Made by a program: the position numbers and the translations under genes. A stretch of 64,000 nucleotides of DNA from an uncultured delta proteobacterium (lineage in GTDB: Bacteria; Myxococcota; Myxococcia; Myxococcales; Myxococcaceae): contig CAVSWU010000003.1 of the NCBI GenBank assembly GCA_963731795.1, forward strand, positions 1,158,216 through 1,222,215, written 5' to 3'. Positions 18,443 to 61,697 of this stretch are shown here, one piece after another. The notes below the pieces were generated by a model, which was given only the letters and a program-made list of their open reading frames with translations, searched no databases and was not told the DNA's origin. Position 1 is the stretch's first letter. Each line of letters begins with the position of its first letter.

Positions 18443-18445
18443 TCC

Positions 18446-18933
18446 ATGACGCCTGTCGTACGTAACCGCCTCATCGCCGTGGCAGCCCTCCTGGTGGCCG
18501 GTGCGGGCCTGGCCTTCGTGGCCTTCGGCAACATCGGCAACAACCTGGTCTACTACTGGAGCCCGGCGGAGATGATCAGCCAGGGCGAGAAGGCCTATGG
18601 CCCCACCATCCGCCTGGGCGGCGTGGTGAAGCCCGGCTCCATCCAGTGGAACGCCGAGCACACCAGCCTGAACTTCCAGGTCGCCACCGATCACAAGCCG
18701 GACGCGGTGGCCGTGACGGTGCACTCCACCGAGGTGCCGCCGGCCGATGTTCCGTGAGGGCATCGGCGTGGTGGTGGAGGGCACCTTCGACAAGTCCCAG
18801 GTGTTCAGCTCCAACCGGCTGATGGTGAACCACTCCAACGAGTACCGCGCGCCCAAGCCGGGCGAGAAGCCGCGCGAGTGGAAGGAGAGCCTCACCGACA
18901 GCTCCGCCACGCGCGACGACGAGGCCTCAGTGA
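18446..18933 (+). CDS. ccmE: heme chaperone CcmE; frameshift ~18750 and a second near the 3' end
   Basis: N-term TM + …VTVHSTEVP then MFREGIGVVVEGTF…LMVNHSNEYRAPKP (heme-binding His/Tyr region); no in-frame stop before ccmF, but GTGA overlap motif at 18930-18933. Confidence 0.65.
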
Positions 18934-20956
18934 ACGCGACGATTGGATATGGGCTCGTGCTCGGCGGGCTGGTGTGCGCCGCGTTCGGGGCCGTGATTGG
19001 CTTGACGAGCGGCCTGCGCCAGAGCGAGGCGGGCTCTCAGTGGGTGCGGCGCGCGGTGTGGGGCTTCTTCCTCTGCATGGCGGGCTCCAACCTGACCATG
19101 GTGTACGCGCTGGTCACCCACGACTTCAGCCTCGCGTACGTGGCCCAGGTGGGCAGCCGCGCCACGCCGCTGCTCTTCACAGATCGTGTCCCTGTGGAGC
19201 GCGCTGGAGGGGTCCATCCTCTTCTGGGGCCTCATCATGGGCACCTACCTGCTGGCCTTCTCGCTGGTGCACCGCAACGAGCACCGGCGCTACATGTCGC
19301 TGGCGCTGGGCACCATGCTGGGCGTGGGCGTCTTCTTCGCCTTCCTGATCGCCGGCCCGGCCAACCCCTGGCACGTGCTGGCGCAGGTGCCGCCGGACGG
19401 CCCGGGGCCCAACCCGCTGCTGCAGAACCACATCCTCATGGTCATCCACCCGCCCATGCTCTACCTGGGCTACGTGGGCATGACGGTGCCCTTCGGCATC
19501 GCGGTGGCGGGCCTGCTGCGCGGGGAGCTTGGCGACGCGTGGATGGCGCCGCTGCGGCGCTGGATCGCTCATCCCGTGGACGTTCCTCTCGGTGGGCATC
19601 ATCCTCGGCGCGTGGTGGGCGTACGCGGTGCTGGGCTGGGGCGGCTACTGGGCGTGGGATCCGGTGGAGAACGCCTCGTTCCTGCCGTGGCTGACGGCCA
19701 CCGCCTTCATGCACTCCACCCTGGTGCAGGAGCGCAAGCAGATGCTCAGGCTGTGGACCATGAGCCTGGCGCTGGCCAGCTTCGTGCTGACGATCCTCGG
19801 CACGTTCATGACGCGCTCGGGCATCTTCAACTCGGTGCACTCCTTCACCCAGTCGGACATCGGGCCCACGTTCCTGGTGTTCATCGCCTTCCTGCTGGTG
19901 TTCTCCATCGTGCTGCTGGCCACGCGCGGGCACCTGCTGGTGGCCAAGGGCCAGATCAACTCGTTCATCTCGCGTGAGACGAGCATCCTGGTGAACAACC
20001 TGGTGTTCGTGGCCATCACCTTCACGGTGCTGCTGGGCACGGTGTACCCGCTCGTCTCCGAGGCGGTGCGCGACGTGCGCGTCAGCGTGGGCGAGCCGTA
20101 CTTCAACAAGATGGCCGTGCCGGGCGGCATCGCCGTGCTCTTCCTCATGGGCGTGGGGCCGATGCTGCCGTGGGGCACGCCGAACAAGGACGCGCTGCGG
20201 CGGCAGTTCCTCTTCCCCGCCGCCGTGGGCCTGGTGGTGGCGGCGATCTGCTACGCGGTGGGGCTGCGCGGCTTCTACCCGCTGCTCACCTTCGGGATCG
20301 CCGGCTTCGTCACCATCGTCACCCTGCGCGAGCTGGCGGCGCCGATCCGCGTGCGCATGAGCGAGCGCAAGGAGAGCCTCGGCACGGCGCTCGTCCAGAG
20401 CGTGTCCAAGGCCCGCCGGCGCTTCGGCGGCTACGTGGTGCACCTGGGCATCATCTTCATCATCGTGGCGGTGGCGGCCTCGCACGCGTACGTGAAGCAC
20501 ACCTCCGGCACGATGAAGGTTGGCGAGGCGATCAAGCTGGACGGCTACACGCTCAAGTACCTGGGCCCGGCCGAGGGCAAGGAGCCCCACCGCACCTACG
20601 TGGCGGCGCGCATGGAGGTGACGACGCCTGGCGGCAAGGTGCAGGAGTTCCAGCCGCGGCTGAACTACTACGAGCGCAGCACGGACCCCGTCGGCACGCC
20701 CGCGGTGCGCGAGTCGCCGCAGGAAGATCTCTACATGTCGCTGATGGCCTTCTCCGAGCGGGGGACCACGGCGAGCCTCAACGTGTGGGTTTTCCCGCTG
20801 GTGGGGTGGATCTGGTACAGCATCCCCATCCTGGTGCTGGGCGCGCTGATCTCGCTGTGGCCGACGCGGCGGCGCGTGGCGGTGGGCGCGAGCGCTCCGG
20901 CCACGAGCGGTGCCCCGCCGGTGGCGGACAGTGACATGAACCGGGGTGCGGCATGA
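18930..20956 (+). CDS. ccmF: cytochrome c-type biogenesis protein CcmF; frame disruptions ~19190 and ~19565
   Basis: Three frame segments with CcmF signatures (…SLWSALEGSILFWGLIMG…, …GGYWAWDPVENASFLPWL…), ~670 aa total. Confidence 0.75.
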
Positions 20957-21609
20957 CGGGGGAAAACCTGGGCGCGCTCGCCTTCGTTGCAGTGCTGCTC
21001 CTCTCCCTGCTGACGGGCTTCTGGCGGAATCCGCGCGTGAAGCGGTGGAGAACCATTCTGAGAGTCCCACTGCTCGCGGTTGCCGTCTCCGCGGCGCTGC
21101 TCATCGTGATGCTGAAGGGCTTCGGGCGGGATCCGCACGAGGTGCCCTTCATGTTGGCCGGCAAGCCAGCCCCGCCCTTCACCTTGCGCGCGCTGAACAG
21201 CGGCAAGCCGGTGAGCCTGGAGCAGTTCAAGGGCCGCCCGGTGGTCATCAACTTCTGGGCTTCATGGTGCGGCCCCTGCCGGCAGGAGCACCCGGTGCTC
21301 GACTGGGGCGCGCGGGAGCTCGGCAATCAGGCGGTGTTCCTGGGCATCATCTTCGAGGACACCGAGGACAACGCGCGGGAGGTCCTCCAGGAGGAGGGCG
21401 CCAGCTTCCCGCAGCTGGTGGATCCGCGCTCGCGCATCTCGGTGGACTACGGCGTGTCGGGCGTGCCGGAGACGTACTTCATCGACGCCAACGGCATCAT
21501 CATGGGCAAGCACGTGGGCCCCATCGATCCGCAGACGCTGTCCACCCGCATCAAGGAGCTGAATGCCCGGACGGCCTCCACCGCGACAGGCTCGGCCCAG
21601 AACCCTTGA
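20953..21609 (+). CDS. ccmG: thiol:disulfide interchange protein CcmG/DsbE
   Basis: TM anchor, thioredoxin fold with WASWCGPCRQE active site; ATGA overlap with ccmF. Confidence 0.85.
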   Translation: MTGENLGALAFVAVLLLSLLTGFWRNPRVKRWRTILRVPLLAVAVSAALLIVMLKGFGRDPHEVPFMLAGKPAPPFTLRALNSGKPVSLEQFKGRPVVINFWASWCGPCRQEHPVLDWGARELGNQAVFLGIIFEDTEDNAREVLQEEGASFPQLVDPRSRISVDYGVSGVPETYFIDANGIIMGKHVGPIDPQTLSTRIKELNARTASTATGSAQNP

Positions 21610-21660
21610 GCCGTCAGGATCGCGCTCCCGGAGCTCGCACTGAGCGGAGGTAAGTGAGTC

Positions 21661-22831
21661 ATGCACCAGTGCACTGAGTGTGGCACGGTCGCCGCGGAGC
21701 CCCGCCTGAAGTACTGCGAGGAGTGCGGGGCGCGGATGCCCGAGTACAAGCCGCCTCCCCTGCCCCCCGAGGGCGGCCCGGGTGGAGCGGCGCTCGCGGA
21801 CTCCCGCCGCGCCACGCCCGCCTATACCGGCCCGAAGTGGCTGGCGCATGTCCCCGCGCACTCGCCCACCTCGCTGGGCGTCATCCTGCACGTGCTGGCC
21901 CTGTGGCTCTCCATCCTCCCCTTCCTCGCGGGCGTGGGGCCGTTCTGGTCCTTCGTGATGACGGTGGGCGGGGTGCTCATGATCGCCCGGGAGTACCGCA
22001 CCTCGAACCTGCCGAACCCGCTGGTGGACTGGATCCCCGAGTCGCTCCTGCCGAGCTTCCTGCCCGTCGTGTACTCGGCGCTGGCCGTGGCGATCGTGCT
22101 GCCGATGGTGGAGTTCAGCATCCAGCCGCTGCTGTGGGCGGGCGGCACGGTGCTGGTGGTGCGCGACCAGTGGGGCAAGGCCTTCACGGGCCCGGGTGGC
22201 TACGCGGAGATCTTCGATCCTCGCGCGGTGGTGCGCGGCCAGCGGCTGCTGGCGTTCGCGGGCATCGTCGTGTGCGTGCTGGCGCTCTTCTTCACGTGGA
22301 CGCTCGAGGGTGAGGTCACCGCCAGCGGGTACGCCTCGGCTGCCTCGGGGCAGCTGCGCTCCATCAACGTGCCGCAGCCGGGCGGCGACTCGATCTACGG
22401 CGGCGCGGGGGGGCTCCGGGTGTCAGGGTTCGAGCTGCCCGTGGGCTCCACCGTGGAGATCGGGCTGCTGGCGATCCTGATGCTGCTGATGCTGAAGCCC
22501 GAGGTGGAGCGCCCCGTGTGGCTGCGCTTCGTGCCCGCCGGGATCACGGTGATCTCCCTGGCCTGGGTGCTGGTGAACATGCGCATGAAGGTGGGGCCGA
22601 TCCTGTTCCTGGCGGGGCTCATCCCCGTGGGGCTCGTCTCGGTCCTCCAGGCGCTCGGCCGCGATGAGCATGCCCCCGGAGGACTACGCCCACGAGCCGC
22701 CTCCCGACGAGTCCTTCGCCCAGGACGCCGACCTGCCTCCGGAGGAGGACTTCCCGACCGAGAACGACCCGTTGCCGCCCGACGAGGCAGAGCATCCGCC
22801 TTCCGAGGATGATGAGGACATGCGCGGCTGA
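21661..22831 (+). CDS. zinc-ribbon polytopic membrane protein with acidic C-terminal tail (hypothetical); frameshift ~22665
   Basis: N-term CTECG…CEECG zinc ribbon, 6+ hydrophobic helices; last ~50 aa read in +1 frame give DYAHEPPPDESFAQDADLPPEEDFPTENDPLPPDEAEHPPSEDDEDMRG with much better GC3 than the annotated frame. Confidence 0.6.
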
Positions 22832-40056: not shown

Positions 40057-41196
40057 ATGGCGGACCTTCCGGACCTCGAGACCCTTCGAATCGGCATCGA
40101 GCGCATCGACGCGGAGATCCTGGATGCCCTCCGGCGGCGGATGGATCTCGCGGACGACATCGCCCGCACCAAGCTGGCTGCCGCCTCTCCCCTGCGGGAT
40201 CCGAAGCGGGAGGACCTCGTGCTCCGAAAGGTCCGCGAGGTGGCAACCTCCAACGGCCTGGATCCCCACGAGATCGAGCGCATCTACCGGCTCATCATGG
40301 ACATGTCCGTCGCGCGGCAGCAGTCGCTCATCCAGCGGCTGGACACCACGCCGCTGCGCGTGGGCTATGCGGGCATCGAGGGCTCCTACAGCCACCTCGC
40401 CGCTCGCCAGCGCTACGCGGGCCGTCCCGGCGGCGTCCTGCTCACCGGCTTCGAGACCGGTCGCGAGGTGCTGGACGCCCTGCGCCGGGGCGAGCTGGAT
40501 CTCGCGCTGCTGCCCATCGAGAACACCTCGGCGGGGAGCGTGAGCGAGACGTACGATCTGCTCGCCGAGGGTGGGGTCGCCATCATCGGGGAGCTGCTCA
40601 GCGAGGTGGATCACCGGCTGCTGGGCCTGCCCGGCGCGCGGCTGGAGGACATCCGCACGGTGCTGTCCCATCCGCAAGCGCTCGCGCAGTGCGAGGCCTT
40701 CCTGCGCAAGGTGCCGTGGATCCGCCCCCAACCCGAGTTCGACACCAGCGGCGCGGCCCTCAAGGTGCGCGAGCGCAACGATCCCACGGTGGCGGCCATC
40801 GCCAGCGAGTCCGCGGCCCAGCGCTTCGGGCTGCAGGTGCTGGTGCGCGACATCCAGCCGGCCTCCGGGGACTACACGCGCTTCGTGGAGCTGGCCCGCG
40901 AGGCCACGCCTGTTCCCCCGGATGTGCCGTGCAAGACGACGATCACGGTCGTGCTGGAGTATCGGCCCGGGACGCTCGGGCAGGTGCTCACGGCGCTGGC
41001 GCAGCGGGGGGTGAACCTGGCCAAGCTGGAGTCCCGCCCCATCCCCGGCCAGCCGTGGCGGTACCGCTTCTACCTGGACCTGGAGGGACACGCGGCCTCG
41101 GCATCGCTGGTCGCGGCGCTCGAGGATCTCCAACCGCTCACTTCATCGATGCGGGTGCTCGGGACCTACCCGCGAGCGGAGAACGAGCATGGGTAG
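40057..41196 (+). CDS. pheA: bifunctional chorismate mutase / prephenate dehydratase (P-protein)
   Basis: N-terminal CM_2 domain, PDT domain (…LLPIENTSAGSV…), C-terminal ACT. Confidence 0.85.
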   Translation: MADLPDLETLRIGIERIDAEILDALRRRMDLADDIARTKLAAASPLRDPKREDLVLRKVREVATSNGLDPHEIERIYRLIMDMSVARQQSLIQRLDTTPLRVGYAGIEGSYSHLAARQRYAGRPGGVLLTGFETGREVLDALRRGELDLALLPIENTSAGSVSETYDLLAEGGVAIIGELLSEVDHRLLGLPGARLEDIRTVLSHPQALAQCEAFLRKVPWIRPQPEFDTSGAALKVRERNDPTVAAIASESAAQRFGLQVLVRDIQPASGDYTRFVELAREATPVPPDVPCKTTITVVLEYRPGTLGQVLTALAQRGVNLAKLESRPIPGQPWRYRFYLDLEGHAASASLVAALEDLQPLTSSMRVLGTYPRAENEHG

Positions 41197-42007
41197 TCCG
41201 CGCATTGCCTTCCAGGGCGAGCGTGGCGCCTACAGCGAGGAGGCCACGCGAGCTTTCTTCGGCCCGGCGGTGGAGGCCGTGCCCTGCCCCAACTTCCGTG
41301 CCGTCTTCGAGGCGGTGGCCGCGGGCAGGGTGGACGGGGGCGCGGTGCCAGTGGAGAACTCGCTGGCCGGGTCGGTCCTGGACAACGTGGATCTGCTGCT
41401 GGAGTTCTCCGTGCCGGTGACGGGCGAACTGTCGCTGCGCATCCGGCACTGTCTGCTGGCTCCGGCTGGAGTCGCGCTGGCCGACATCCACCGCGTCCTC
41501 TCCCACCCTCAAGCCCTGGCTCAGTGCGCGGGCTTCCTGCGCCAGCACGGCATCACTCCCGTGGCAGACGCGGACACCGCAGGCAGCGCCAAGAAAGTCT
41601 CGGAGCAGAGGCCGCCGAACACCGGCGCCATCGCGAGCCGGACCGCAGCGGAGCTCTATGGCCTGACGGTGGTGCTGGAAGGCATCCAGGATGGCCTGAA
41701 CAACTACACCCGGTTCCTCTCGCTGGGCACGGTGCCGAAGCTGCCGGGCTCCCGGAGCAAGACGTCGGTGAGCTTCACCCTGGAGAACACGCCGGGGGCG
41801 CTCCACGCGCTGCTGGGCGTGTTCGCCACGCGGGGCCTGAACGTGCTCCGCCTGGAGCCGCGTCCGCTGCGGCGTCCCTGGGATTACATCTTCTGCCTGG
41901 ATCTCGAAGGCTCGCGCGAGGATCCCCGAGTCAGCGAGGCGCTCGATGCGGCCTCGCTCCTGTGCGGCTCGTTCCGGGTGCTGGGCAGCTACCGCGTCGC
42001 CGACTGA
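41189..42007 (+). CDS. prephenate dehydratase (monofunctional paralog) with ACT domain
   Basis: 272 aa, …AVPVENSLAGSV… PDT motif; overlaps pheA stop. Confidence 0.8.
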   Translation: MGSPRIAFQGERGAYSEEATRAFFGPAVEAVPCPNFRAVFEAVAAGRVDGGAVPVENSLAGSVLDNVDLLLEFSVPVTGELSLRIRHCLLAPAGVALADIHRVLSHPQALAQCAGFLRQHGITPVADADTAGSAKKVSEQRPPNTGAIASRTAAELYGLTVVLEGIQDGLNNYTRFLSLGTVPKLPGSRSKTSVSFTLENTPGALHALLGVFATRGLNVLRLEPRPLRRPWDYIFCLDLEGSREDPRVSEALDAASLLCGSFRVLGSYRVAD

Positions 42008-42217
42008 GTTCGATCACCTCATCGATATCTGGCAGGACAAAGCCCGTTGGGCGGAAGAGTTGTTGAGCACTGAAGCGGGAATACCAGACATGCCGGGAAC
42101 AGCCGATCACGGGCCGTAAGATTGCGGTGTCGCCCACAGATTTGTTACGAATCGCTTCTCTATTCCCCGGGGGAAGTGCAACCTGCTGGGCCGGCAGGAG
42201 GACACCATTTGGAGCAG

Positions 42218-44173
42218 ATGGGCAAGTACCAGCTCGTCCGCAGACTCGCGACCGGCGGCATGGCGGAGGTGTTCCTGGCCAAGGCTGCCGGCCCGATGGG
42301 GTTCGAAAAGGAACTGGTCGTCAAACGGATCCTCCCCCATCTGGCGGAGGATCCTCGCTTCGTCGAGATGTTCCTCTCCGAAGCGAAGCTGGCAGCGCGC
42401 CTCAACCACGGCAACGTCGTCCAGATCTTCGACTTCGGCGAGCAGGACAACTCGTACTTCATTGCCATGGAGTACCTGGAAGGCCTCAACCTCAAGGCCC
42501 TGTCTCAGCGGGCCTTTCAGCGAGGCGCTCCCATCTCCTTCCCGCTCGTGGCCCGGATCGTCTCCCTGACCTGCGAGGGGCTCGCCTATGCCCACGAGTT
42601 GCTGGACCCCGAGAGCGGACAGCCGCTGGGGTTCATTCACCGGGACATCAGCACCGACAACATCCTCGTGTCGCTGACAGGCGGAGTGAAAGTGGTCGAC
42701 TTTGGCATCGCCAAGGCCGCCAACATAGGGCAGCAGACCCAGGGCGGCGTGCTCAAGGGGAAGCTGTCCTATATGCCCCCGGAGTACCTGATGGGACTCC
42801 CCATCGACTCACGGGCGGACATCTACGCTCTCGGGGTGGTGCTCTACGAGCTGGTCACCGGCCGCAAGCCCTTCGTGGCCGAGACAGAGGTCTTGCTCGC
42901 GCAGCTCATCGTCCACTCATCTCCGCCCGAGGTGCGGACCCTGCGCCCGGACGCGCCCGCGACGCTGGCCCAGATCATCGAGCGGGCTCTGCACAAGCAG
43001 CGAGAGGCTCGCTACGAGAGCTGCCGGCAGATGCAAGCGGACCTGGAGCGCTTCCTCTTCCAGTGTGGCGAGCCCGTCGGAGCGCTCCAGATCGCCGAGC
43101 TGGTCAAGACGCTGTCCGCGACGAATGGCGCCCCAGGGCGCCGTCTCTCGCGGGAAGTCCCCTTGGTGCCTCCGAGTGCCGCGCCCGCTACCTCCAAGGA
43201 AGTCACCAGGCCCCTGAGGGCGCCGAATCCAGCCGTGCCCCCCCTCCCCCCTCCGGAGGATCCGGCTGAGCCGACCGTTCCCGCTCTTCCTCCAATCGCT
43301 CCTGATGACGCGACAGAGAAGCCCACGGCTCCCCTGAAACGCTCTCGGCTCATGTCCCCATCCGAGACGGAGGCCGAGGACGAGGAGCTTCGGCGGCTCG
43401 TCGCACGTCCACGCTGGCGCTGGCCTGTGATCCTCGCCGTGGGCGCGCTCGCAGCGCTGGGCCTGGTCGTGTTCAGCTTCTCGGACAAGGGCGCGGGTTC
43501 CGCGGAGGTCGCTGCCCCCTCATCGCACGTGCAGGACTCCCCCCCAGCTTCAGCCCCTCCCTCGACGAGACCAGCGCCTCCGGCCGATGCTCCGCCCCAG
43601 GCAGCTCCGCAAGCTGCGGTGACTCCGCAGGCCAACACTCCTGCCCGTTCCCCGCAGGACGCCCCGAGCCAGCCAGCCCCCCAAGGAGTACCGGAAAAAG
43701 CTGAGGCGGTGGCGCCAACCCCTTCCCACGCGCCTACTGCCACGCCCCCAGGCTCCGCGACGCTCACAGTCACTAGCAATCGGAGAGCTGAGGTTTGGAT
43801 CAAAGACAAGCGCGTTGGAACGACGCCCTGCGAAGTGCCCGTCGATCCTGGCCAACTGACGGTCATGGTCACCGAAGTGGGACACAACGACCGCTTCAAC
43901 ATGGTGAAGTCGGTCAAGATCTCGGCGGGGGAGCATCAAGAGGTCTCTTTCAACATCCGTCGCGTCACTGTTCAGATACGCGGCAAACCAGACGACATGA
44001 AAGTCCTATCCGTGGATGGCCACACGATTCCCAGCGACGCACAGGTGCCACTCTACGAGGGAGAGCACATTGTCGAACTCGTGCACCCCCTCACTGGGAA
44101 GCACTACGTCTCGTCATGCGTGGCCAAGTTTGGGGAAAGGCTGTGCAAATTTTTTGTTATGAAGCTTCAGTAG
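42218..44173 (+). CDS. Ser/Thr protein kinase with TM segment and C-terminal PEGA domain
   Basis: [21 protein letters not shown]…[11 protein letters not shown]…DFGIAKA…; Pro-rich linker, TM ([18 protein letters not shown]), PEGA-like C-terminus; GGAG RBS. Confidence 0.85.
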
Positions 44174-44187
44174 TGAAGAACCGCCCA

Positions 44188-45285
44188 ATGCTGCGCATCC
44201 ACTCCAGTCCAGCGCGCAACCGCACCATGCCAGCGGAGCACTGGGCCAGAGTGGGGTTCTCCGCTCTTCTGGCAGCCTTGGTGATCTTTCTGCTTCCGAG
44301 CCAGGCCTCCGCGCAGGAGCTCAATGTGCCCCAGAGTCGCAATCCCTACCTTCGCAAGATCGCGCATCTCTACGAGGCGCTCGAATATGAATCAGCGCTT
44401 CAGCTGATCCCGAAGGCGGAAAAGCACCCGAGCAACAAGGACCAGGAAGCGCTCTGGCTCGAGCTCATGCAAGGCATCTTGTATTACAGCCTTCATGACA
44501 GCCAGCAATCAGACGCGGCCTTCCTGCTCGCTCTCAAGAAGGCTCCCTTCACCTCCCTGCCTCTCCTCAATCCTTCCCAGACACTGTACGAACACTTCAA
44601 CGCCTTGAGGCAGGAAGTCACTCCGACAGGAAGGACCAAGTCCGAGACGAGTAAACTACATCCCGCGAGCACTGCCGCGCCCCCCAGTTCTTCCCCCAAC
44701 ACCGCCAGCGGCATCTCGGAGACAGCCCTGCAGGAGAAGTTGAATGCGCTGGAGCAGCGCGGGCGAGAGATGGCAGGTGGATCGATACCACCGACGATCG
44801 CCTCATCTCTCAAGACCTTGCGCCAACAGGCGCGTCAGGCGCAAACAGCCCATGAGCGGATGATCGTGGCCACGACGGTCGATCTCTGGATGAACCTGCT
44901 CAACGAGCAGCAGGCAGTAGCCCCCTCTGTCCCCGCCTCAGCGAGCGCCCCAGCCCCAGGCATGGGGCCGGTGCCTTCTCCAGAAGAGGACCCGCTTGAG
45001 CCGGAGAGCGAGCGCCTGTTGCACCCCATCTCTCGCGAGTTCCTCGGGCAGAGGATGGCTGAGATGAAGACATGGTTGAACAAGAACGTCCAAAACCCCA
45101 GGGGCCGCCTGGAAGTGCTTGAGCTGCTTGACCATGCTCGAGATCAGCTCGAAGCCTCCCAGAACGCCCACGAGCGCATGTCGGTCGCCATCAAGCTGGA
45201 CAATGTCGAAGAGCAGATGGCGCGGCGATTTGGCTGGAAGATAAAGAACCCGCGTCCGGAGGTTGCTGCTCCTTCGGACCAGTAG
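44188..45285 (+). CDS. secreted hypothetical protein (signal peptide, helical/coiled-coil); atypically low GC
   Basis: Signal peptide …ALLAALVIFLLPSQASAQE; start 44188 or 44227; codon usage markedly less GC3-biased than neighbours. Confidence 0.5.
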   Translation: MLRIHSSPARNRTMPAEHWARVGFSALLAALVIFLLPSQASAQELNVPQSRNPYLRKIAHLYEALEYESALQLIPKAEKHPSNKDQEALWLELMQGILYYSLHDSQQSDAAFLLALKKAPFTSLPLLNPSQTLYEHFNALRQEVTPTGRTKSETSKLHPASTAAPPSSSPNTASGISETALQEKLNALEQRGREMAGGSIPPTIASSLKTLRQQARQAQTAHERMIVATTVDLWMNLLNEQQAVAPSVPASASAPAPGMGPVPSPEEDPLEPESERLLHPISREFLGQRMAEMKTWLNKNVQNPRGRLEVLELLDHARDQLEASQNAHERMSVAIKLDNVEEQMARRFGWKIKNPRPEVAAPSDQ

Positions 45286-45296
45286 CCCTCTGACGG

Positions 45297-46421
45297 CTAC
45301 CGCGTCGCCGACTGAGCTCGCAGCCCGTCCCCATTGCGCACGGCCTCTTCGTACGCGCCGCGGACGATGCGCGTGTAGCGCTGGAGCGCCGGGAGCTGCT
45401 CCAGCCGCAGCGCCTGGGGCCCATCGCACAGCGCCTGCTCGGGGTGCGGGTGGAAGTCCACCAGCACCATGGACGCGCCGGCGATCAGCCCCTGCCCGAT
45501 CGCGTGGAAGATGTCCGGCAGCCCGTCCGGCCCCAGCTCCGAGCGGCCCACCGCGTGAGACGGATCCACGCACACCGGCAGCCGCGTGAGCCTCCGCACC
45601 ACGGACACGTGCGCGAAGTCCACCATGTTCCGGTGCGGCTCCCCCAGGTGCGTCTTCACCCCGCGCAGGCAGAAGATGATCTTCGGGTTGCCCTCGCTCG
45701 CCACGTACTCGCAGGCGTTGAGCGACTCCTCCAGGGTGATGCCCATGCCGCGCTTGAAGAGCACCGGGAACTCCCGCTGCTGGCCGATCTGCTTGAGCAG
45801 CTCGAAGTTCTGCGCGTTGCGCGTGCCCACCTGCAGCATGACCCCGGTGGCCTTGCCCGAGGCCTCCAGCGCCGCCCGGATCTCGTCGATGTGGCGCGGG
45901 TTGGTCACCTCCATCGCCACCACCTTGACGCCGTGCTTGCCCGCGAGCTCGAACACCCACGGCAGGCACGCCGCGCCGAGCCCCTGGAACTCGTACGGGC
46001 TGGTGCGCGGCTTATACGCGCCCATGCGCGTGGTGCGGATGCCGCACTGGGCCAGCGCTCCCATCATGGCATCCACGCTCTCGCGCGTGTCCACCGCGCA
46101 CAGGCCCGCGAAGAGGTTCACGCTCTTCTCGTCGAAGGTCACCCCGTTGTACTCGAAGCCCGCCGTCTCCCGCTTCCCACCGTGACGGCCGATCACCCGG
46201 TACTTCTCGGACACGCGCACCACCTGCCGCACGCCGGGGATCTGCTGGAAGGGCTCCAGCGGCACCTGAGCGGTGGCGCCTAGCAGGTAGATCTCGGTGA
46301 CCGCGTACTCGGCCCCCTCGATGACATGCCTCCGGGGAGTGAGCCCCTTGTACTGGGAGGCGACATTCAGGACCGCATCCACGGTGGAAGCAGGCGAGTC
46401 CGGCTCGAGCATCACGATCAT
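45297..46421 (-). CDS. 3-deoxy-7-phosphoheptulonate (DAHP) synthase, type I-beta with N-terminal regulatory domain
   Basis: 374 aa; KDO8P/DAHP synthase barrel (…KVVAMEVTNPRHIDE…VCVDPSHA…) preceded by ~90-aa FL/ACT-like domain. Confidence 0.8.
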   Translation of the reverse strand: MIVMLEPDSPASTVDAVLNVASQYKGLTPRRHVIEGAEYAVTEIYLLGATAQVPLEPFQQIPGVRQVVRVSEKYRVIGRHGGKRETAGFEYNGVTFDEKSVNLFAGLCAVDTRESVDAMMGALAQCGIRTTRMGAYKPRTSPYEFQGLGAACLPWVFELAGKHGVKVVAMEVTNPRHIDEIRAALEASGKATGVMLQVGTRNAQNFELLKQIGQQREFPVLFKRGMGITLEESLNACEYVASEGNPKIIFCLRGVKTHLGEPHRNMVDFAHVSVVRRLTRLPVCVDPSHAVGRSELGPDGLPDIFHAIGQGLIAGASMVLVDFHPHPEQALCDGPQALRLEQLPALQRYTRIVRGAYEEAVRNGDGLRAQSATR

Positions 46422-46485
46422 TCACAGGCTCCGAAACGAGAGAGGTGGGCCACACCTCTGAGGTAACAACCTTGGGTCGGGCTGC

Positions 46486-47049
46486 TCAGCCTGCGGGCCG
46501 CAGGCGTGCCGCGAGGTGCGCGTAGTGGCTGCTTCGCTCGGCATCCCCCAGGTGCGACCAGATGTCCGCCAGGGCCCTCGCCGCCTCAACGTAGGCCGGG
46601 TGGTACTCGAGCGCCAGTTCGAACGCGTGGCGGGCATGCCGGTAGCGCGCCTTGTCCACCCGCCGCGAACCTCGGGATAGCAGCGACTCGCCCAGGTTGA
46701 AGATCTCGGTGGCGGCGGCCTCCCGGTACGGCGGCTCGGGGTTGAGCTGGAAGGCGCGCTCCAGCAGGGTGGCGGCCTCCTCGGGCTCGTCCAGCTCGAG
46801 CTGGCACAGCGCGGCGTGGCGGTAGTTGTCCGCGACGGCTGGGTCCAGCTCGATGGCGCGCTCGAAGCAGCGCAGCGCCTCCGCCGGCCGGCCCAGCCTC
46901 GCGAGCGAGAAGCCCTTGGCACTCAGCGCCGGGCTGTGCCGCGGGTCCTCGTGGAGCACCTTGTCGAAGGCTTGGATCGCAGCCTGGTGATCCCCGGCCA
47001 TCGAGCGGTTCACCCCCTCGTTGAAAGCGGCGAGCAGCTTGTGTGACAT
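46486..47049 (-). CDS. TPR repeat protein
   Basis: 187 aa, 4-5 TPR-like repeats. Confidence 0.7.
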   Translation of the reverse strand: MSHKLLAAFNEGVNRSMAGDHQAAIQAFDKVLHEDPRHSPALSAKGFSLARLGRPAEALRCFERAIELDPAVADNYRHAALCQLELDEPEEAATLLERAFQLNPEPPYREAAATEIFNLGESLLSRGSRRVDKARYRHARHAFELALEYHPAYVEAARALADIWSHLGDAERSSHYAHLAARLRPAG

Positions 47050-47234
47050 CGCTTTCCTCTCGAAGCTCTGGCCGCGCGCATCACGGCCATCGAGCTAGCC
47101 TGACAGGCAGGAAGCGGGCTGAAAAGCCGCCCCTCCTCGGCGGCCGCCCCGAGCAGGAAGCCCCGCTAATAACTCGTCGCATCATCGCGTGGAGAAAGTC
47201 CGGATCTCAGGGAACCCAGCTCGGGCCTCTCCGC

Positions 47235-53302: not shown

Positions 53303-54088
53303 TTGGACGGACTCAAAGAAATCGCGGTAGTCTGGAGCGCCGAGACCCTTCGGGCCGTGCGCAGCGCCCGCACGCTGGTGTTGCTCGGGCTCTACAGCAT
53401 GTTCTCCCTGGTGGTCCTGCTGGTCGCCAGCCTGGTGGCCCGCAACGCCCGCCTGGACATGGAGGGGATGGCGGCGCTGGAGCAGCTGCCCCCGGACGTG
53501 GCGTGGATCTTCAAGATCACCCTCTGGTTCCTGCCCGTGTACGTGGCCCTGATGGGCTTCGATCAGATCAGCGGCGAGGTGGGCCCGCGCTCCATCCGCT
53601 ACCTCACCGTGCGCGCGCGCGTGTCGTCCGTGCTGCTGGGCAAGTTCCTCGTGCAGTCCTCGCTGCTGGTGGGCCTGGTGTTCGTCATCGACGTGGGCCT
53701 CTTCATCTACGCGCGCTTTGCCCACCCGAACTTCGTCTTCTCCGCCATGGTGCTGAACCTGCTGAAGGTGTGGCTGGCGACGCTCGTGTTCTCGCTGGCC
53801 TACGTGGCGCTCACCTCGCTCTGCTCGAGCCTGTTCCGCACCTCGGGGCTGAGCCTGGTCTTCAACTTCGTCATGGTCCTCACCTTCCTGGTGATGGAGC
53901 TGGCCGGCTGGTACTTCGAGGGCAAGTCGTTCCTCACCTACATCCGCTACCTGGCCCCCTCGTACTACTCGGCGAACCTGCTGAGCACGGTGCCCAGCGA
54001 GTTTGGCCTCAGCGCCCTGGCCTACGCCTGCTTCACCGTGATCTTCCTCGGCGGCTCCTATGCCGTCCTGCGCGCGAGGGACCTGTGA
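53303..54088 (+). CDS. ABC-2 type transporter permease
   Basis: 261 aa, 6 TM. Confidence 0.7.
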   Translation: MDGLKEIAVVWSAETLRAVRSARTLVLLGLYSMFSLVVLLVASLVARNARLDMEGMAALEQLPPDVAWIFKITLWFLPVYVALMGFDQISGEVGPRSIRYLTVRARVSSVLLGKFLVQSSLLVGLVFVIDVGLFIYARFAHPNFVFSAMVLNLLKVWLATLVFSLAYVALTSLCSSLFRTSGLSLVFNFVMVLTFLVMELAGWYFEGKSFLTYIRYLAPSYYSANLLSTVPSEFGLSALAYACFTVIFLGGSYAVLRARDL

Positions 54089-54996
54089 GCGAGCCCGCCG
54101 TCGAACTGTTCCAGCTCACCAAGCGCTTCGGCCCCAAGGTGGCCGTCAACGCCGTCACCCTCTCCATCCCCCAGGGGCAGGTGTACGGCCTCATCGGCCC
54201 CAACGGCGCCGGCAAGACGACCGCCTTCTCGATGATGTGCGGCTTCCTCCACCCCTCCGAAGGCGCGCTCAAGGTCCTGGGCGTGACGCCGACGACGCCA
54301 GGAGCCCTCAAGGGCAAGCTGGGCGCGCTGCCCCAGGATGCCCTCCTGCCTCCGGGCTGGGAGGTGGGTGAGCTGCTGACGTACTGGGCACGGCTCTCGG
54401 TGCTCGCCCAGCCCGAGCGCGAGGCCCGCGAGGCGCTCGAGAAGGTGGGACTGGCGGACGCCTGGGGCACGCGCACGGAGGCCCTGTCTCACGGCATGGC
54501 CAAGCGCACGGCCATGGCCCAGGCGATGATGGGGCAACCGCCGCTGGTGCTCCTGGACGAGCCCACCGCCGGCCTGGATCCGCGCGTCGCCGCCCAGGTG
54601 CGCCAGCTCATCCGAGACATGAGGGGCCGGCAGACCGTGGTGGTCTCCAGCCACAACCTCCAGGAGCTGGAGGAGCTGTGCGACGCGGCGGCCATCCTCG
54701 ACCGAGGCATGGTGGCGAAGGCCGGCGCCATGTCCGAGCTGACCGGCCAGGGCGCGGAGTTCCGGGTGCAGATCGCCAGCGGCGAGATCCTCCCCCCGGA
54801 GCTCACCCAGCTGCCCGGCGTCACCTCCGCGAAGATGGAGTCTCCCGGCGTGCTCCTGGTGCGCTTCGACGGCCAGGCCCACAAGCCCGAGGAGGTCATC
54901 AGCCGCACCGTGGGCCACCTCCTCCAGACGGGGGTGCTGATCCTCGGCGTCCACCGGGGCCAGCGGCTGGAAGAGCGCGTCCTGCAGATTCTTTGA
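54085..54996 (+). CDS. ABC transporter ATP-binding protein
   Basis: GTG start overlapping permease stop (GTGA); Walker A GPNGAGKTT, signature LSHGMAKR, Walker B LLDEP. Confidence 0.8.
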   Translation: MSEPAVELFQLTKRFGPKVAVNAVTLSIPQGQVYGLIGPNGAGKTTAFSMMCGFLHPSEGALKVLGVTPTTPGALKGKLGALPQDALLPPGWEVGELLTYWARLSVLAQPEREAREALEKVGLADAWGTRTEALSHGMAKRTAMAQAMMGQPPLVLLDEPTAGLDPRVAAQVRQLIRDMRGRQTVVVSSHNLQELEELCDAAAILDRGMVAKAGAMSELTGQGAEFRVQIASGEILPPELTQLPGVTSAKMESPGVLLVRFDGQAHKPEEVISRTVGHLLQTGVLILGVHRGQRLEERVLQIL

Positions 54997-55018: not shown

Positions 55019-55273
55019 CTACGGCCCGTGAACTCCCGGCTCCCCTCCCGCCTTGCGCACCCATCCGACGTAGCTCGCCCCCCGGCGCTCCATGCGGATG
55101 AGGGTGTGCCCGGTGGCCTCGCACCAGGCGGGCAGATCGGCCTCCAGGCCTCGATCCGTGGAGATCAGCTCCACCAGCGCGCCCCCGGGCAGGCGCCGGA
55201 TGGCCTTGGCGATCTCCAGAATGGGCACGGGGCAGGCGGTCCCCGAGGTGTCCACGCGAACGGCCGCTTCCAT
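55019..55273 (-). CDS. TusA-like sulfurtransferase (SirA/YedF/YeeD family)
   Basis: MEAAVRVDTSGTACPVPILEIAKA… CPxP motif. Confidence 0.7.
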   Translation of the reverse strand: MEAAVRVDTSGTACPVPILEIAKAIRRLPGGALVELISTDRGLEADLPAWCEATGHTLIRMERRGASYVGWVRKAGGEPGVHGP

Positions 55274-55503
55274 GGATGTGAGTCTGACACGCGCCAAGGT
55301 TGGCGCGTGAGAGGGGAATTTCCCGGAAAAACTTACTGTTTCCGGGCCTCTATGAAATGTGGGGAGGCCGTCGGCAGCATGGCGGCTCGGCTTGCATGGC
55401 CGGATTTTCCTCTGTTATCTAGCCCCGCCTTCCTTACCCGGTCTGGGGTCGCCACGCGCGGGATGGACCTGAGACGCTGAGACGCAAGGAGCAGAACGGA
55501 CAT

Positions 55504-57481
55504 ATGAAAGCCAACGTAATCGTGGCCCTGGTAGTGGGCCTGGTGCTCGGGTTCTTTGGTGGCAAAGCCGCCACCGGCACTGGTAAGAGCAGTGACAGTG
55601 GCACCGCACAGGTCGCCGCGAACGCGCCCTCGGCGCCCAGCCAGGCCGCGAAGCCCACGCGCCAAGCAGACCCCACCGTGTTCAAGGTTCCCCTCGAGGA
55701 CTCGCCCCGCCGGGGCAGCGATGACGCCCTCATCACCGTCGTCGAGTTCTCCGACTTCCAGTGCCCGTTCTGCGCCCGCGCCTACACCACCGTGGAGAAG
55801 CTGCGCGAGCAGTACGGCGAGAAGCTCCGCGTGGTGTTCAAGCAGAACCCGCTGCCGTTCCACCCCCGCGCCAAGCCCGCGGCCATGGCGGCGATGGCCG
55901 CCGGTGAGCAGGGCAAGTTCTGGGAGATGTACGACAAGCTCTTCGGCGCCCGCGCTCTTGAGGACGCGGACTTCGAGAAGTACGCCCAGGAGCTCGAACC
56001 TCGACGTGGCCCGCTGGAAGAAGGATCTGACCAACCCGAAGTTCCAGCAGATCGTCGACCGCGATCAGGCGCTGGCCAGCCAGCTCGGCGCCAACGGCAC
56101 CCCGGCCTTCTTCATCAATGGCCGCCTGCTCTCCGGTGCGCAGCCCATCGAGAACTTCAAGGCCATCATCGACGAGGAGGTCACCAAGGCCGAGGCGATG
56201 GTGAAGAACGGCACCAAGCCGAGCCAGGTCTACGCCGCCGTCATCGAGAAGGGCCAGACGCGCGCCGCCCCCCCGCCGTCCGCTCCGCAGCAGCCCGCGG
56301 GCCCGCGCAAGGTGGAGGTCCCCGTGGACGCCCCCGTCCAGGGTGAGAAGACCGCCAAGGTCACCATCGTCGAGTGGTCCGACTTCGAGTGCCCCTTCTG
56401 CAGCCGCGTGGAGCCCACGCTGGCCAAGGTCAAGGAGACGTACGGCAAGAACGTGCGCCTGGTGTGGCGCAACCAGCCCCTGCCCTTCCACCCGCACGCG
56501 AAGCTGGCCGCCACCGCCGCCATGGCCGCGCACGAGCAGGGCAAGTTCTGGGAGATGCACGACAAGATGTTCGCCAACCAGAAGGCCCTGGAGCGCGCCG
56601 ACCTGGAGAAGTACGCCCAGGAGCTCAAGCTGGACATGAACCGCTTCAAGCAGGCCCTGGACAGCGACAAGTTCAAGGCGAAGATCGACGCGGACTCCGC
56701 GGCCGGTAGCGCGGCGGGCGCCAACGGCACGCCGACCTTCTTCATCAACGGCCGCCAGGTCGTGGGCGCGCAGCCCTTCGAGAACTTCAAGCAGACCATC
56801 GACGAGGAGCTGGCCAAGGCGGACAAGCTGCTGGCCAGCGGCGTGAAGCCCGAGGATCTCTACGCGAAGATCATGGAGTCGGCGGGCAATGCTCCGGCTC
56901 CCTCCGAGGCCGCGGCCCCGGCCGAGCCGCCCGTGCAGAAGATCGAGGTTGGCAAGGCGCCGGTGAAGGGCCCCGCCAACGCCCCGATCACCATCGTCGA
57001 GTGGTCCGACTTCGAGTGCCCCTTCTGCGGCCGCGTCACGCCGACCGTGAAGCAGCTCGAGGAGGAGTACAAGGGCAAGATCAAGATCGCCTTCAAGCAC
57101 CAGCCGCTGCCCTTCCACGCGCACGCGCACCTGGCCGCCACCGCCGCCATGGCCGCGCAGGAGCAGGGCAAGTTCTGGGAGATGCACGACAAGCTCTTCG
57201 CCAACCAGCGCGCCCTGGAGCGCGCGGACCTGGAGAAGTACGCCCAGGAGCTCAAGCTGGACATGAACAAGTTCAAGCAGGCCCTGGACACCGACAAGTT
57301 CAAGGCGGCGCTGGACGCGGACTCCGCCGAGGGCATGCGCGTGGGCGCCAACGGCACGCCGACCTTCTTCATCAACGGCCGCACGGTGGTCGGTGCGCAG
57401 CCCGTCGAGAACTTCAAGAAGGTGATCGATGAGGAGCTGAAGAAGGCGCAGGGCGGCGCGGTGGCCAAGGACACGAAGTAG
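55504..57481 (+). CDS. three-domain DsbA-family thiol:disulfide oxidoreductase (3 tandem thioredoxin/DsbA repeats); frameshift ~55980
   Basis: TM anchor; CPFCARA, CPFCSRV, CPFCGRV active sites each followed by …NPLPFHP…AAMAA.EQGKFWEMHDK…GANGTPTFFINGR…; first repeat's tail read in ORF 55556..57481 frame. Confidence 0.75.
56340..57470. repeat. two ~630-nt near-identical direct repeats (DsbA domains 2 and 3)
   Basis: gtcgagtggtccgacttcgagtgccccttctgc, cagggcaagttctgggagatgcacgacaag, gccaacggcacgccgaccttcttcatcaacggccgc each occur twice ~630 nt apart. Confidence 0.7.
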
Positions 57482-57570
57482 TCCTCACCGCTCCCCTGAA
57501 GTCTCCGAGGCCGTCGGACCCACGAGGTCCGGCGGCCTCCGTGTTTTTCAGCGTCTTTTCAGCGTCCGGT

Positions 57571-57957
57571 TCAGGAGACGGCGATGGCGTCGATCTCCAC
57601 CTTGGCGCCCCGGGGCAGCGCGGCCACCTGCACGGTGGCGCGGGCCGGCGGGGCGGCGGTGAAGGAGCGGCCATAGACTTCGTTCACCTTGGCGAAGTCG
57701 GCCAGGTCGGTGAGGAAGATGGTGCAGCGCACCACGTGGGAGAAGTCGAGCCCGCCGGCGGCGAGCACGGCCTTCAGGTTCTGCATCACCTGCTCGGCCT
57801 GCGCGGCCGCGTCACCCTGGACCATCTCCATCGTCTTGGGGTTGAGGGGGATCTGCCCGGAGAGGAACGTCATCTTCCCGGACTCCACCTGAATGGCCTG
57901 CGAGTAGGGGCCAATGGCCTGGGGGGCGCTGTCGGAGTGGAGGGCTTTGCGTGCCAT
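57571..57957 (-). CDS. ridA: RidA/YjgF family reactive-intermediate deaminase
   Basis: 128 aa canonical RidA. Confidence 0.85.
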   Translation of the reverse strand: MARKALHSDSAPQAIGPYSQAIQVESGKMTFLSGQIPLNPKTMEMVQGDAAAQAEQVMQNLKAVLAAGGLDFSHVVRCTIFLTDLADFAKVNEVYGRSFTAAPPARATVQVAALPRGAKVEIDAIAVS

Positions 57958-60401: not shown

Positions 60402-61697
60402 ATGTCACAGCTCCTGCTGTCCGCTCTCGCCGTGGTCTGCCCGAACTGTGACGGCCACAATCCGCCTCGTACGGCGGTGTGCGCGCAGTGCGGTGCCTCC
60501 GTGGCCGAGGCACCGAGCCCTCGGGCAGCCCCTGCTCGCCCAGCGGCCGGGCAGCGGCCCCCTGTCCCTCCGGGTACCTCCGCTCGTGCAGCGCCGGCCG
60601 CCAGCGCGCCCAGGGGTGCCGAGAGTGGCCCGCCCGTTCCGCGCGCCGGAGAGGCCATCCCGCCAGGGCTGAGGCCGTCCGCCCGGGCGCCTACCCCCGA
60701 GGCCGGTGCCCATCCCGCCGAGCCTACGCCCTCCGCACGGCCCGGCCCTCCTGTGCCCACGGTGGCATCCGCCGCTGTGCCTCGTCCTGGCGTTGCCGCC
60801 CCCCACCCGCCTTCGGGCGCCCGTCCAAAGCCCGCGGATGCGCCCCCTCCCCGGCCTGGCCCTGGGGCGCGCGCGGCCCCTCCGGTTCCCGCCGAGCGTC
60901 CGGCACCTCCCATCCCCGACGCTGCCATGCCCAGAGCGGCGCCCGCCATGCCCGTGGCCGCGCCGGCGGCCCCTCCGGTGGCTGCGCCGGCGGCCCCTCC
61001 CATGGCTGCGTCGGCGGCCGCTCCCGCCGCCGCGCGACAGGCTCCCGCTGCCTCACGGTTCGGGCTCACGGTCGTCGCGGGGACGACCCGGGGACAGCGC
61101 TACAAGCTCCCGGTCACTGGCTGCGTGGTGGGCCGCAGCCGCGGGGCCATCCTCCTGCAGGAGGATGTGTTCGTCTCCGCCCTCCACGCGACGTTCCTCG
61201 TGAAGGATGGTGCGCTCTTCGTCCGTGACGAGAACAGCGCCTCGGGGGTCTACGTCACCGTCCCTGGCACCGAGGCCATCGCGCCCCGGGCCCTCTTCAG
61301 CGCGGGCTCGCGGCTGTTCCGCTTCAGCGGCCGCATCGAGATCCCCATCGCCCAGCAGGGGCAGCCGGTCATCTACGGCGCTCCCGTGCCGCTCGGGCAG
61401 GCCATCTACGCCGTGGAGGAGATCCTCGTGGGAGGGCGCGCGGGCCGCACCGTGGTGGCGGCCACCGCGCTGCTCACCATCGGCCAGGCGCACTGCGACT
61501 TCAGCTTCCCGCAGGACGAGGGCCTCGCCGGCCGGCACTGCGAGCTCAGCCCGACCGCCACCGGAGCCATGCTGAGGGATCTGTCCGGAGGCCTCGGCAC
61601 GTATGTCCGGATCGCCCCGGGCACCGAGCGCCAGCTGCGCCCCGGAGACCGCATCCGCATCGGCCAGCACGTGTTCCAGGTGGAGATGCTGGGCTGA
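60402..61697 (+). CDS. zinc-ribbon / Pro-rich linker / tandem FHA-domain protein
   Basis: CPNCDGHN…CAQCG N-terminus, ~200-aa Pro/Ala-rich region, two FHA-like modules (…GRSRGAILL…SALHATF… and …TIGQAHCDFSF…LAGRHCEL…). Confidence 0.7.
   Translation: MSQLLLSALAVVCPNCDGHNPPRTAVCAQCGASVAEAPSPRAAPARPAAGQRPPVPPGTSARAAPAASAPRGAESGPPVPRAGEAIPPGLRPSARAPTPEAGAHPAEPTPSARPGPPVPTVASAAVPRPGVAAPHPPSGARPKPADAPPPRPGPGARAAPPVPAERPAPPIPDAAMPRAAPAMPVAAPAAPPVAAPAAPPMAASAAAPAAARQAPAASRFGLTVVAGTTRGQRYKLPVTGCVVGRSRGAILLQEDVFVSALHATFLVKDGALFVRDENSASGVYVTVPGTEAIAPRALFSAGSRLFRFSGRIEIPIAQQGQPVIYGAPVPLGQAIYAVEEILVGGRAGRTVVAATALLTIGQAHCDFSFPQDEGLAGRHCELSPTATGAMLRDLSGGLGTYVRIAPGTERQLRPGDRIRIGQHVFQVEMLG

Follow-up and report, generated by a model that had tools for sequence, protein, structure and literature searches.

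A conserved myxobacterial gene probably encodes a membrane-tethered protein with three tandem DsbA-like domains, two of them partly homogenized by putative gene conversion

Do three DsbA-like thioredoxin domains that lie in tandem, but in two overlapping reading frames, belong to one functional gene, and if so, how old is the triplication and what would the protein do? This question was raised by positions 55504 to 57481 (forward strand) of a 64,000-nt stretch from an uncultured delta proteobacterium of the Myxococcaceae (contig CAVSWU010000003.1, positions 1,158,216 to 1,222,215), which we refer to as the window. A preliminary description, made from the sequence alone, had seen here a membrane-anchored triple-DsbA protein, rare in kind, that contained a frame slip and had arisen by recent duplication. 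We consider it highly probable that the region is one conserved gene with its own ribosome-binding site and terminator, orthologous to the 'DsbA family protein' of Myxococcaceae and Archangiaceae (including M. xanthus). This judgement applies jointly to the conserved gene, a tethered three-headed product, an old triplication, gene conversion between domains 2 and 3, and a frame slip caused by error. The earlier observation is thereby partly confirmed and its interpretation partly supported.

As given, the region contains an upstream open reading frame (ORF) of 280 aa (55504–56346, frame 1, ATG at 55504) and an overlapping downstream ORF in frame 2 (55556–57481). Removal of one base yields a 658-aa product, as the preliminary description had proposed. 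Part A of the corrected coding sequence (CDS; 55504–55995, frame 1, codons 1–164) encodes the anchor, the linker and the first 106 residues of domain 1; in tblastn it was 93% identical to residues 1–164 of the Hyalangium ortholog, in frame 1. Part B (55997–57481, frame 2, codons 165–658 and the stop) encodes the remainder of domain 1 as well as domains 2 and 3 and was 92% identical to residues 165–659 of the same ortholog, in frame 2. The extra base that causes the slip is placed at 55996, its exact place within GAAC (55996–55999) being arbitrary. By direct reading, a Shine-Dalgarno-like AAGGAG (55487–55492) stands 11 nt 5' of the ATG. Starting 26 nt past the stop (57507–57549) is an intrinsic-terminator-like hairpin with a T tract behind it; 11 of the 14 bp in its stem are G-C pairs. 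All of these features are on the forward strand.

The corrected 658-aa product matched the Pfam models PF13462 (Thioredoxin_4; E = 6.1e-94, 313 bits, cutoff 23.2) and PF01323 (DSBA; E = 1.3e-73, 247 bits, cutoff 25.6), each in three stretches, which bears out the three complete DsbA-type domains with one CPFC each that had been described. According to the hmmsearch coordinates, domain 1 comprises aa 59–238 (55678–56218, with the frame slip inside), domain 2 aa 267–447 (56303–56845) and domain 3 aa 477–656 (56933–57472). The CPFC motifs begin at aa 87, 296 and 505 (55762–55773, 56390–56401 and 57017–57028). They were unchanged across 40 orthologs, and CPFC was also found in every domain of the sampled relatives with three, four or five domains. 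A Gly-Thr-Pro loop is invariant in the three domains (56096–56104, 56726–56734 and 57353–57361; T199-P200, T409-P410 and T618-P619), a reading of the sequence that does not extend to the cis state of the proline. The ratio of nonsynonymous to synonymous substitution rates (dN/dS) ranged from 0.07 to 0.48 across all domains and was 0.29 downstream of the slip. Purifying selection acts on all three domain positions.

An AlphaFold2 model of P0005, an intact ortholog that is 93% identical, was built from a 40-sequence alignment and contained three domains at a predicted local distance difference test score (pLDDT) of 85–97. The linkers (256–266 and 464–476) and the N-terminus (1–56) had pLDDT <50, and the predicted template-modelling score was 0.39. 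The sequence has Pro/Ala-rich linkers of ~30 residues between the domains and an Ala/Pro/Ser-rich tether after the anchor. The overall shape predicted by the model is that of three beads on a flexible string. In Foldseek searches each domain matched 4pwo/4pwp (C. diphtheriae MdbA/DsbA) and TsdA (7unn), with a root-mean-square deviation (rmsd) of 1.7 Å over 171 columns at 36% identity; BdbD, ScsC and Wolbachia DsbAs were also matched. The modelled rmsd of 1.5–1.7 Å to 4pwo, 7unn and 3gyk suggests a thioredoxin fold with a helical insert. When a single domain was compared with PDB sequences by phmmer, 4pwo was the best match (E = 1.7e-19, SDFECPFC in common), followed by 3gyk, BdbD and ScsC.

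The N-terminal hydrophobic segment MKANVIVALVVGLVLGFFGG (55504–55563) may be a signal anchor or a signal peptide. In the 40 orthologs, 12 of its 20 positions were at least 90% conserved, which is consistent with the N-terminal anchoring proposed earlier. Some four-domain relatives have a lipobox (e.g. LVAGC) in place of the transmembrane segment. Membrane tethering appears to be a trait of the family, because some relatives carry a lipoprotein signal instead of the conserved hydrophobic segment. P0037, P0040, P0049 and P0092 are four-domain relatives, and lipoprotein signal peptides occur in some multi-DsbA relatives. The NCBIfam model NF041057 (Rcas_1661 thioredoxin-like (seleno)lipoprotein) gave 305.5 bits against a cutoff of 190, a score summed over three stretches. 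We rejected membership in this family: the single-domain scores were estimated to be below the cutoff, and the protein has neither a lipobox nor a selenocysteine or cysteine-for-selenocysteine context.

The three copies form direct repeats of a ~627–630-nt unit, and the spacing of these copies located the frame slip. Measured from start to start, copies 1 and 2 are 631 nt apart immediately 5' of 55995 and 630 nt apart past this point; copy 1 therefore contains one extra base. Homology changes frame directly after GAGCTC at 55995. Ten of ten orthologous genes examined (an alignment of nine from L001–L013, and P0005) read CTCG-GCCTGGAC at this site, encoding L/I-G-L-D/N, where the window reads CTCGAACCTCGAC; all ten are single intact ORFs. 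A blastn comparison with the Hyalangium locus L082, from a metagenome-assembled genome (MAG), which has 92–94% DNA identity and served as the reference for indels, likewise placed the gap in the DsbA gene at about 55995. This level of DNA identity suggests that the source organism is Hyalangium-like. The slip that the preliminary description had reported is thus real, but it lies at about 55996 and not at ~55980.

The DsbA gene is not the only one affected. In tblastn against L082, the DsbA gene shared its frame switch with RelA, a penicillin-binding protein (PBP), the GGDEF protein and an NtrC-like regulator, the last with two switches; those in GGDEF, PBP, DsbA and RelA recurred against M. 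xanthus. Isolated uncompensated 1-nt indels were located by blastn in the NtrC-like gene (at about 47616, 47792 and 47806), the GGDEF gene (49796), the PBP gene (51506 and 52002), the DsbA gene (55995) and RelA/SpoT (59009). Besides the slip there are at least seven such indels in conserved CDSs within about 17 kb, and 5 of 16 conserved genes are affected. This set fits an indel-prone long-read assembly. Because indels of the same type break RelA, PBP and other nearby conserved genes and the slip is missing from the orthologs, the extra base most likely stems from faulty sequencing or assembly, as comparison with relatives suggests. The earlier treatment of the slip as something to correct agrees with this evidence, and without the extra base positions 55990–56005 would read CTCGGCCTCGAC. 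The indels in the window are mostly inserted C or G that give TCGG or GCAG contexts, a pattern that looks like systematic base-calling or polishing error.

We then asked how widespread and how old the three-domain architecture is. Intact three-domain orthologs of 653–682 aa with 68–93% identity are present in Hyalangium, Stigmatella, Myxococcus, Archangium, Corallococcus and Vitiosangium; a homolog search of about 5.8 billion proteins yielded such orthologs from Hyalangium, Stigmatella, Myxococcus xanthus, Pyxidicoccus and many metagenome assemblies. Identity to the window protein was 93, 85 and 84% in Hyalangium, 76% in Stigmatella and 71% in Myxococcus xanthus. The best 120 homologs comprised 44 with three domains, 75 with four and 2 with five. 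Among representatives clustered at 50% identity, 143 of the best 150 clusters matched by a single domain had at least three stretches (113 with three, 25 with four, 4 with five and 1 with six). Triplication is therefore not the rarity for which it had been taken. At least 599 related stretches came to light when genomes were scanned; the best 80 loci, with matches of 1.2–2.7 kb, were from Myxococcota or unclassified MAGs.

In a nearest-neighbour comparison, each window domain was closest to the same-position domain of other genera. Window domain 2 was 73–94% identical to orthologous second domains versus 70% to its own domain 3, and positional orthologs of domains 2 and 3 were present at 73–95% identity in at least six genera. 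Midpoint-rooted neighbour-joining trees of all domains were uninformative on monophyly when the divergent P0044 and P0079 were included; positional orthology rests on nearest-neighbour, site-pattern and bootstrapped segment-tree tests. Because the domains are positionally orthologous and trees of the flanking segments split domain 2 from domain 3, the triplication is older than the radiation of Myxococcus, Stigmatella, Hyalangium and Archangium. One three-domain layout and one length are common to more than 40 orthologs from independent assemblies, and the triplication is therefore no assembly artefact, a possibility that the preliminary description had raised. Copy number among relatives ranges from two to six. 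The four-domain proteins P0040 and P0049 look as if the second domain of a three-domain protein had been copied once more; within them, the identity between domains 2 and 3 is 0.70–0.79. Domains are still being gained in tandem in other lineages, as is seen from P0049, whose extra second-domain copy is 79% identical, but not in the lineage of the window. One relative, P0146, has six domains in 1196 aa.

If the triplication is old, the likeness of domains 2 and 3 needs another explanation. Over 179 codons, these domains share 70% protein and 77% DNA identity, and domain 1 is 55–56% (protein) and 68–69% (DNA) identical to either, in line with its reported greater divergence. The two domains had been called nearly identical at the DNA level. 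Long shared runs are indeed present (exact runs of up to 40–42 nt, repeated 627 nt apart), but high identity is limited to the centre, with 89% over 300 nt and 91.4% over 210 nt versus 72.6% in the flanks. Using codon alignments of domains 2 and 3 from the window and up to nine relatives, we scored two kinds of sites. At orthology (O) sites, window domain 2 equals domain 2 of the other species and is unlike window domain 3, which equals domain 3 of the other species. At concerted (C) sites, the two window domains agree with each other and are unlike domains 2 and 3 of the other species, which are likewise the same as each other. C sites were found in the centre (alignment positions about 150–360) and O sites in the flanks. 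In the comparison with Archangium minus, 1 O site and 22 C sites fell in the centre, as against 28 O sites and 3 C sites in the flanks (Fisher p = 6e-11). With Vitiosangium the values were O=0 and C=18 in the centre and O=26 and C=5 in the flanks (Fisher p = 3e-9), and for most genus pairs p was between 1e-5 and 6e-11.

Segment trees gave the same picture. In neighbour-joining trees with 200 bootstraps, the flanks separated domain 2 from domain 3 with 100% support, and the centre with 0%. The tree of the centre has domains 2 and 3 of Corallococcus as sisters (100%), and domains 2 and 3 of the window and its closest relative fall into one clade, within which the two second domains pair and the two third domains pair. 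Since the central tract clusters by species and the flanks by position, we conclude from these patterns that the identical stretches were, in all likelihood, made by gene conversion within the gene, which was episodic and did not reach beyond about 210 nt of the helical insert. The putative tract, delimited by site patterns, Fisher tests and segment trees, occupies 56480–56689 in domain 2, where it codes for part of the helical insert (AMAAHEQGKFWEMHDK...ELKLDMNRFKQALD), and 57107–57316 in domain 3 (91.4% identical). The clades in the centre tree place the conversion in the window lineage between two splits, the one from H. versicolor and the later one from the JBJMQP Hyalangium MAG, as far as the tree can tell. 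The concerted sites are mostly amino-acid replacements (15–20 per comparison), with 2–6 synonymous sites per comparison.

Two side observations concern the same repeats. A 27-nt tandem repeat at 57257–57316 in domain 3 (2.2 copies, 81% matches) encodes KFKQALDTDKFKAALD and sits in the helical insert and the conversion tract. In domain 1, at 55930–55995, the window and its closest relative read KFWEM as domains 2 and 3 do, where other genera read KYWE; EKYAQEL is found in domain 1 of the window only, again as in domains 2 and 3, where other genera have EKxAxEI. The 23–24-nt runs that domain 1 has in common with domains 2 and 3 stop exactly at the frame-slip site. Small conversion events that reached domain 1 may explain them, as may cross-talk between the repeats during polishing.

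How do these findings stand up to other explanations? The central likeness might reflect parallel, co-evolutionary selection on both domains without DNA exchange, for instance if the helical inserts tracked one changing partner, and the 15–20 replacements common to domains 2 and 3 per comparison, with just 2–6 synonymous changes, would suit such a process. Yet the replacements use identical codons even where several nucleotides differ (CCC/CCC versus TCG/TCG; GAC/GAC versus TCC/TCC), and some concerted sites are synonymous. Moreover, the old fixed differences between domains 2 and 3 are almost gone in the centre (0–4 O sites) and numerous in both flanks, with sharp boundaries; parallel selection alone would leave old synonymous differences in place. 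We therefore consider this explanation unlikely. Still less credible is the earlier interpretation that domains 2 and 3 stem from a recent tandem duplication in the window lineage, or its variant that an assembler expanded or collapsed a repeat. The direct repeats 627 nt apart, the exact runs of 40–42 nt and the 89% identity over 300 nt do suggest recency at first sight. But identity is 77% overall and 72.6% outside the centre, positional orthologs at 73–95% exist in at least six genera and the flank tree splits the domains with 100% support. In addition, close Hyalangium relatives carry three domains, not two, and more than 40 independent assemblies have equal three-domain length. The identical stretches on which the claim of recent duplication relied are better explained by gene conversion.

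Gene conversion leaves the frame slip to be explained, for which error competes with two biological readings. If the frameshift were real, the gene would be a pseudogene or a split gene in this strain and the triple-DsbA function would be lost: the product of the upstream ORF would be anchored but would have an incomplete domain 1 that runs into 116 out-of-frame residues, and the downstream ORF would yield a product without an export signal. The extra base is present in the sequence as given, and the public gene call is a truncated 491-aa product (P0046) that corresponds to the downstream ORF. Against this, the corrected frame runs through 494 codons without interruption as far as the conserved stop, its product shares 92% identity with the ortholog and dN/dS past the slip is 0.29; all other genomes examined have an intact gene. 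So many true lesions as the like 1-nt indels in the RelA, PBP, GGDEF and NtrC-type genes would imply are implausible, and we give a real frameshift only a small chance. A programmed +1 ribosomal frameshift controlling the output of full-length protein is extremely improbable. Its sole support is that two overlapping frames jointly encode one conserved protein; the sequence CTC GAA CCT CGA has no slippery or stop-codon context, no ortholog requires such a frameshift, the extra base is absent in all orthologs examined and like indels occur in unrelated neighbours.

Several points nevertheless weigh against our explanation of a conserved, tethered, three-headed protein with an old triplication. 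The N-terminal segment is not helical in the AlphaFold2 model (pLDDT about 30), and signal-peptidase cleavage may occur after GGKA. No DsbB, VKOR or DsbD gene adjoins the DsbA gene at the loci of the window, M. xanthus, Hyalangium and the two annotated four-domain relatives, and none was found among selected multi-transmembrane ORFs elsewhere in the window. We found no experimental study of any myxobacterial multi-DsbA protein in the literature. The error origin of the extra base is deduced from comparison with relatives, and parallel selection on domains 2 and 3 could contribute to the concerted pattern.

With this in mind, what would the protein do? To judge from its sequence, it is likely a tethered, three-headed periplasmic thiol-disulfide oxidoreductase. 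The product would be exported and stay attached to the inner membrane on its outer side, where its three flexibly linked heads would swap disulfides with secreted cysteine-containing proteins and a membrane partner would recycle the heads. MdbA and BdbD are oxidases, and if the protein acts as they do, the recycling partner would be VKOR or DsbB. According to published work, delta-proteobacteria use VKOR (PMC11208910). Given this and the kinship with MdbA and BdbD, an oxidase recycled by VKOR would be the favoured role. In an isomerase, by contrast, a DsbD- or ScsB-type reductase would serve as partner of a covalent 'trimer' that resembles trimeric ScsC. Four papers (PMC5524982, PMC8900818, PMC6450060, PMC11634996) describe the trimeric DsbA-like proteins PmScsC, CcScsC and Wolbachia alpha-DsbA2 as isomerases, tie trimerization to isomerase or reductase behaviour and propose that oligomerization bars access of DsbB. 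In view of these trimeric isomerases, an isomerase or reductase role of the covalent 'trimer' would be a live alternative.

A bolder proposal, to which we assign a low probability, is that the myxobacterial DsbA arrays of two to six heads are a covalent counterpart of the trimeric ScsC-type isomerases. The heads would be specialized by position, and gene conversion would preserve the identity of the insert surface between domains 2 and 3, as both dock one partner. If this were true, linking heads would turn a DsbA-type oxidase into an isomerase or reductase, or would allow a graded periplasmic reach. Whether oligomerization sets oxidase versus isomerase behaviour is under current debate (PMC11634996). 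Natural DsbA fusions would be a ready test of this question, and the M. xanthus ortholog is genetically tractable.

The surroundings of the gene are conserved as well. The preliminary description had placed a TusA-like gene and an ABC-2 exporter next to it, and both are present upstream. The divergent TusA-family gene (55019–55297, reverse strand; PF01206, E = 1.2e-17) has the CPxP motif ACPVP, and its true start is probably set by the range of the ortholog match (55022–55273). The ABC-2-type permease (53303–54088) and the ABC ATPase (54085–54996) are on the forward strand, and a convergent RidA gene (Ribonuc_L-PSP; 57571–57957, reverse strand) follows downstream; these genes were assigned by Pfam and, except for RidA, also by synteny. 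M. xanthus and Hyalangium share one gene order: PBP, ABC-2 permease, ABC ATPase, TusA, triple DsbA, RidA, RelA, FHA and kinase. A divergent TusA neighbour was found in L001–L014 (Myxococcaceae/Archangiaceae) and at two other loci; it was absent from the remaining related loci fetched, mostly those of four-domain forms, and the neighbours at two annotated four-domain loci were unrelated. TusA-family proteins are cytoplasmic. We regard a functional relation of the gene to TusA or to the exporter as unproven, the adjacency being limited to Myxococcaceae/Archangiaceae and two further loci. In megablast, the locus had no match among plasmids.

Elsewhere in the window, a cytochrome-c maturation (System I) cluster at 18443–22812 includes CcmE (18443–18757), CcmF (19484–20956) and a CcmG/TlpA-like redoxin (20935–21609), the latter about 34 kb from the DsbA gene. 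CcmF matches Pfam models only from profile position 127 and may be 5'-truncated or frameshifted. About 4.4 kb (42008–46476) separate the prephenate dehydratase gene (41189–42004) from a TPR gene (46489–47052), two genes that are 26 nt apart in L082, the closest relative. This difference is a lineage-specific insertion or deletion, and the extra DNA holds a Ser/Thr-kinase-like stretch (tblastn, 42224–43048). The upstream region of the FHA-domain gene (60515–61040) is Pro/Ala/Gly-rich low-complexity coding sequence with many indels of 1–34 nt relative to L082, and good alignment of this gene to L082 is limited to the C-terminal 213 residues.

In practical terms, the gene is ordinary and conserved: many myxobacterial genomes carry an ortholog whose product is already annotated as 'DsbA family protein' or 'protein-disulfide isomerase'. 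The frame slip in the window copy is most sensibly handled as an assembly error to polish, and gene calls in the window need checking for frameshifts. In a wider sense, Myxococcota hold a large, experimentally unstudied family of covalent DsbA arrays with two to six heads. The bounded tract in domains 2 and 3 is a clean small case of concerted evolution within an enzyme-coding gene, and it illustrates that identical DNA stretches between repeats give no date for the duplication.

Which known systems does the protein resemble? Several thioredoxin-fold domains per chain are also found in the PDI family and in UGGT, whose four tandem TRXL domains are DsbA-like but not redox-active. The Foldseek alignment to UGGT (about 546 columns, rmsd 17–18 Å) agrees in serial domain order only; there is no evidence that the two arrays share common descent. 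E. coli DsbA (PF01323) has the thioredoxin fold, helical insert, CPxC motif and, putatively, the cis-Pro loop in common with the window domains but is a soluble, single-domain protein with CPHC and Val-cisPro. Sequence similarity to it is distant, and the E. coli-type NCBIfam DsbA model gave about 25 bits for the window protein against a cutoff of 279. Three DsbA-like heads per assembly, with homologous catalytic domains (4xvw, 7rgv, 6eez), are a feature of Proteus mirabilis ScsC, Caulobacter ScsC and Wolbachia alpha-DsbA2. These, however, are homotrimers formed by an N-terminal stalk, whereas the heads of the window protein are covalently joined by flexible Pro/Ala linkers and are non-identical (55–70%). 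A trimerization stalk helix was not found in model or sequence, residues 21–58 being of low complexity with pLDDT <50. We rejected ScsC/alpha-DsbA2-type membership for lack of a stalk, so that the window protein is at most a possible functional analogue of these isomerases.

By both sequence and structure, each single domain is matched best by MdbA/DsbA of Corynebacterium diphtheriae (4PWO/4PWP) and by TsdA (7UNN). Bacillus subtilis BdbD (3EU3) belongs to the same Pfam family (PF13462), has the same fold with helical insert and is membrane-tethered, as the window protein probably is. BdbD has a single domain with a CPSC motif, and thus no tandem array. MdbA/DsbA and TsdA share SDFECPFC, the G-T-P loop and a (in the window protein putative) N-terminal anchor with the window protein; MdbA has one catalytic domain and works in a Gram-positive envelope, where the window protein carries three such domains in tandem.

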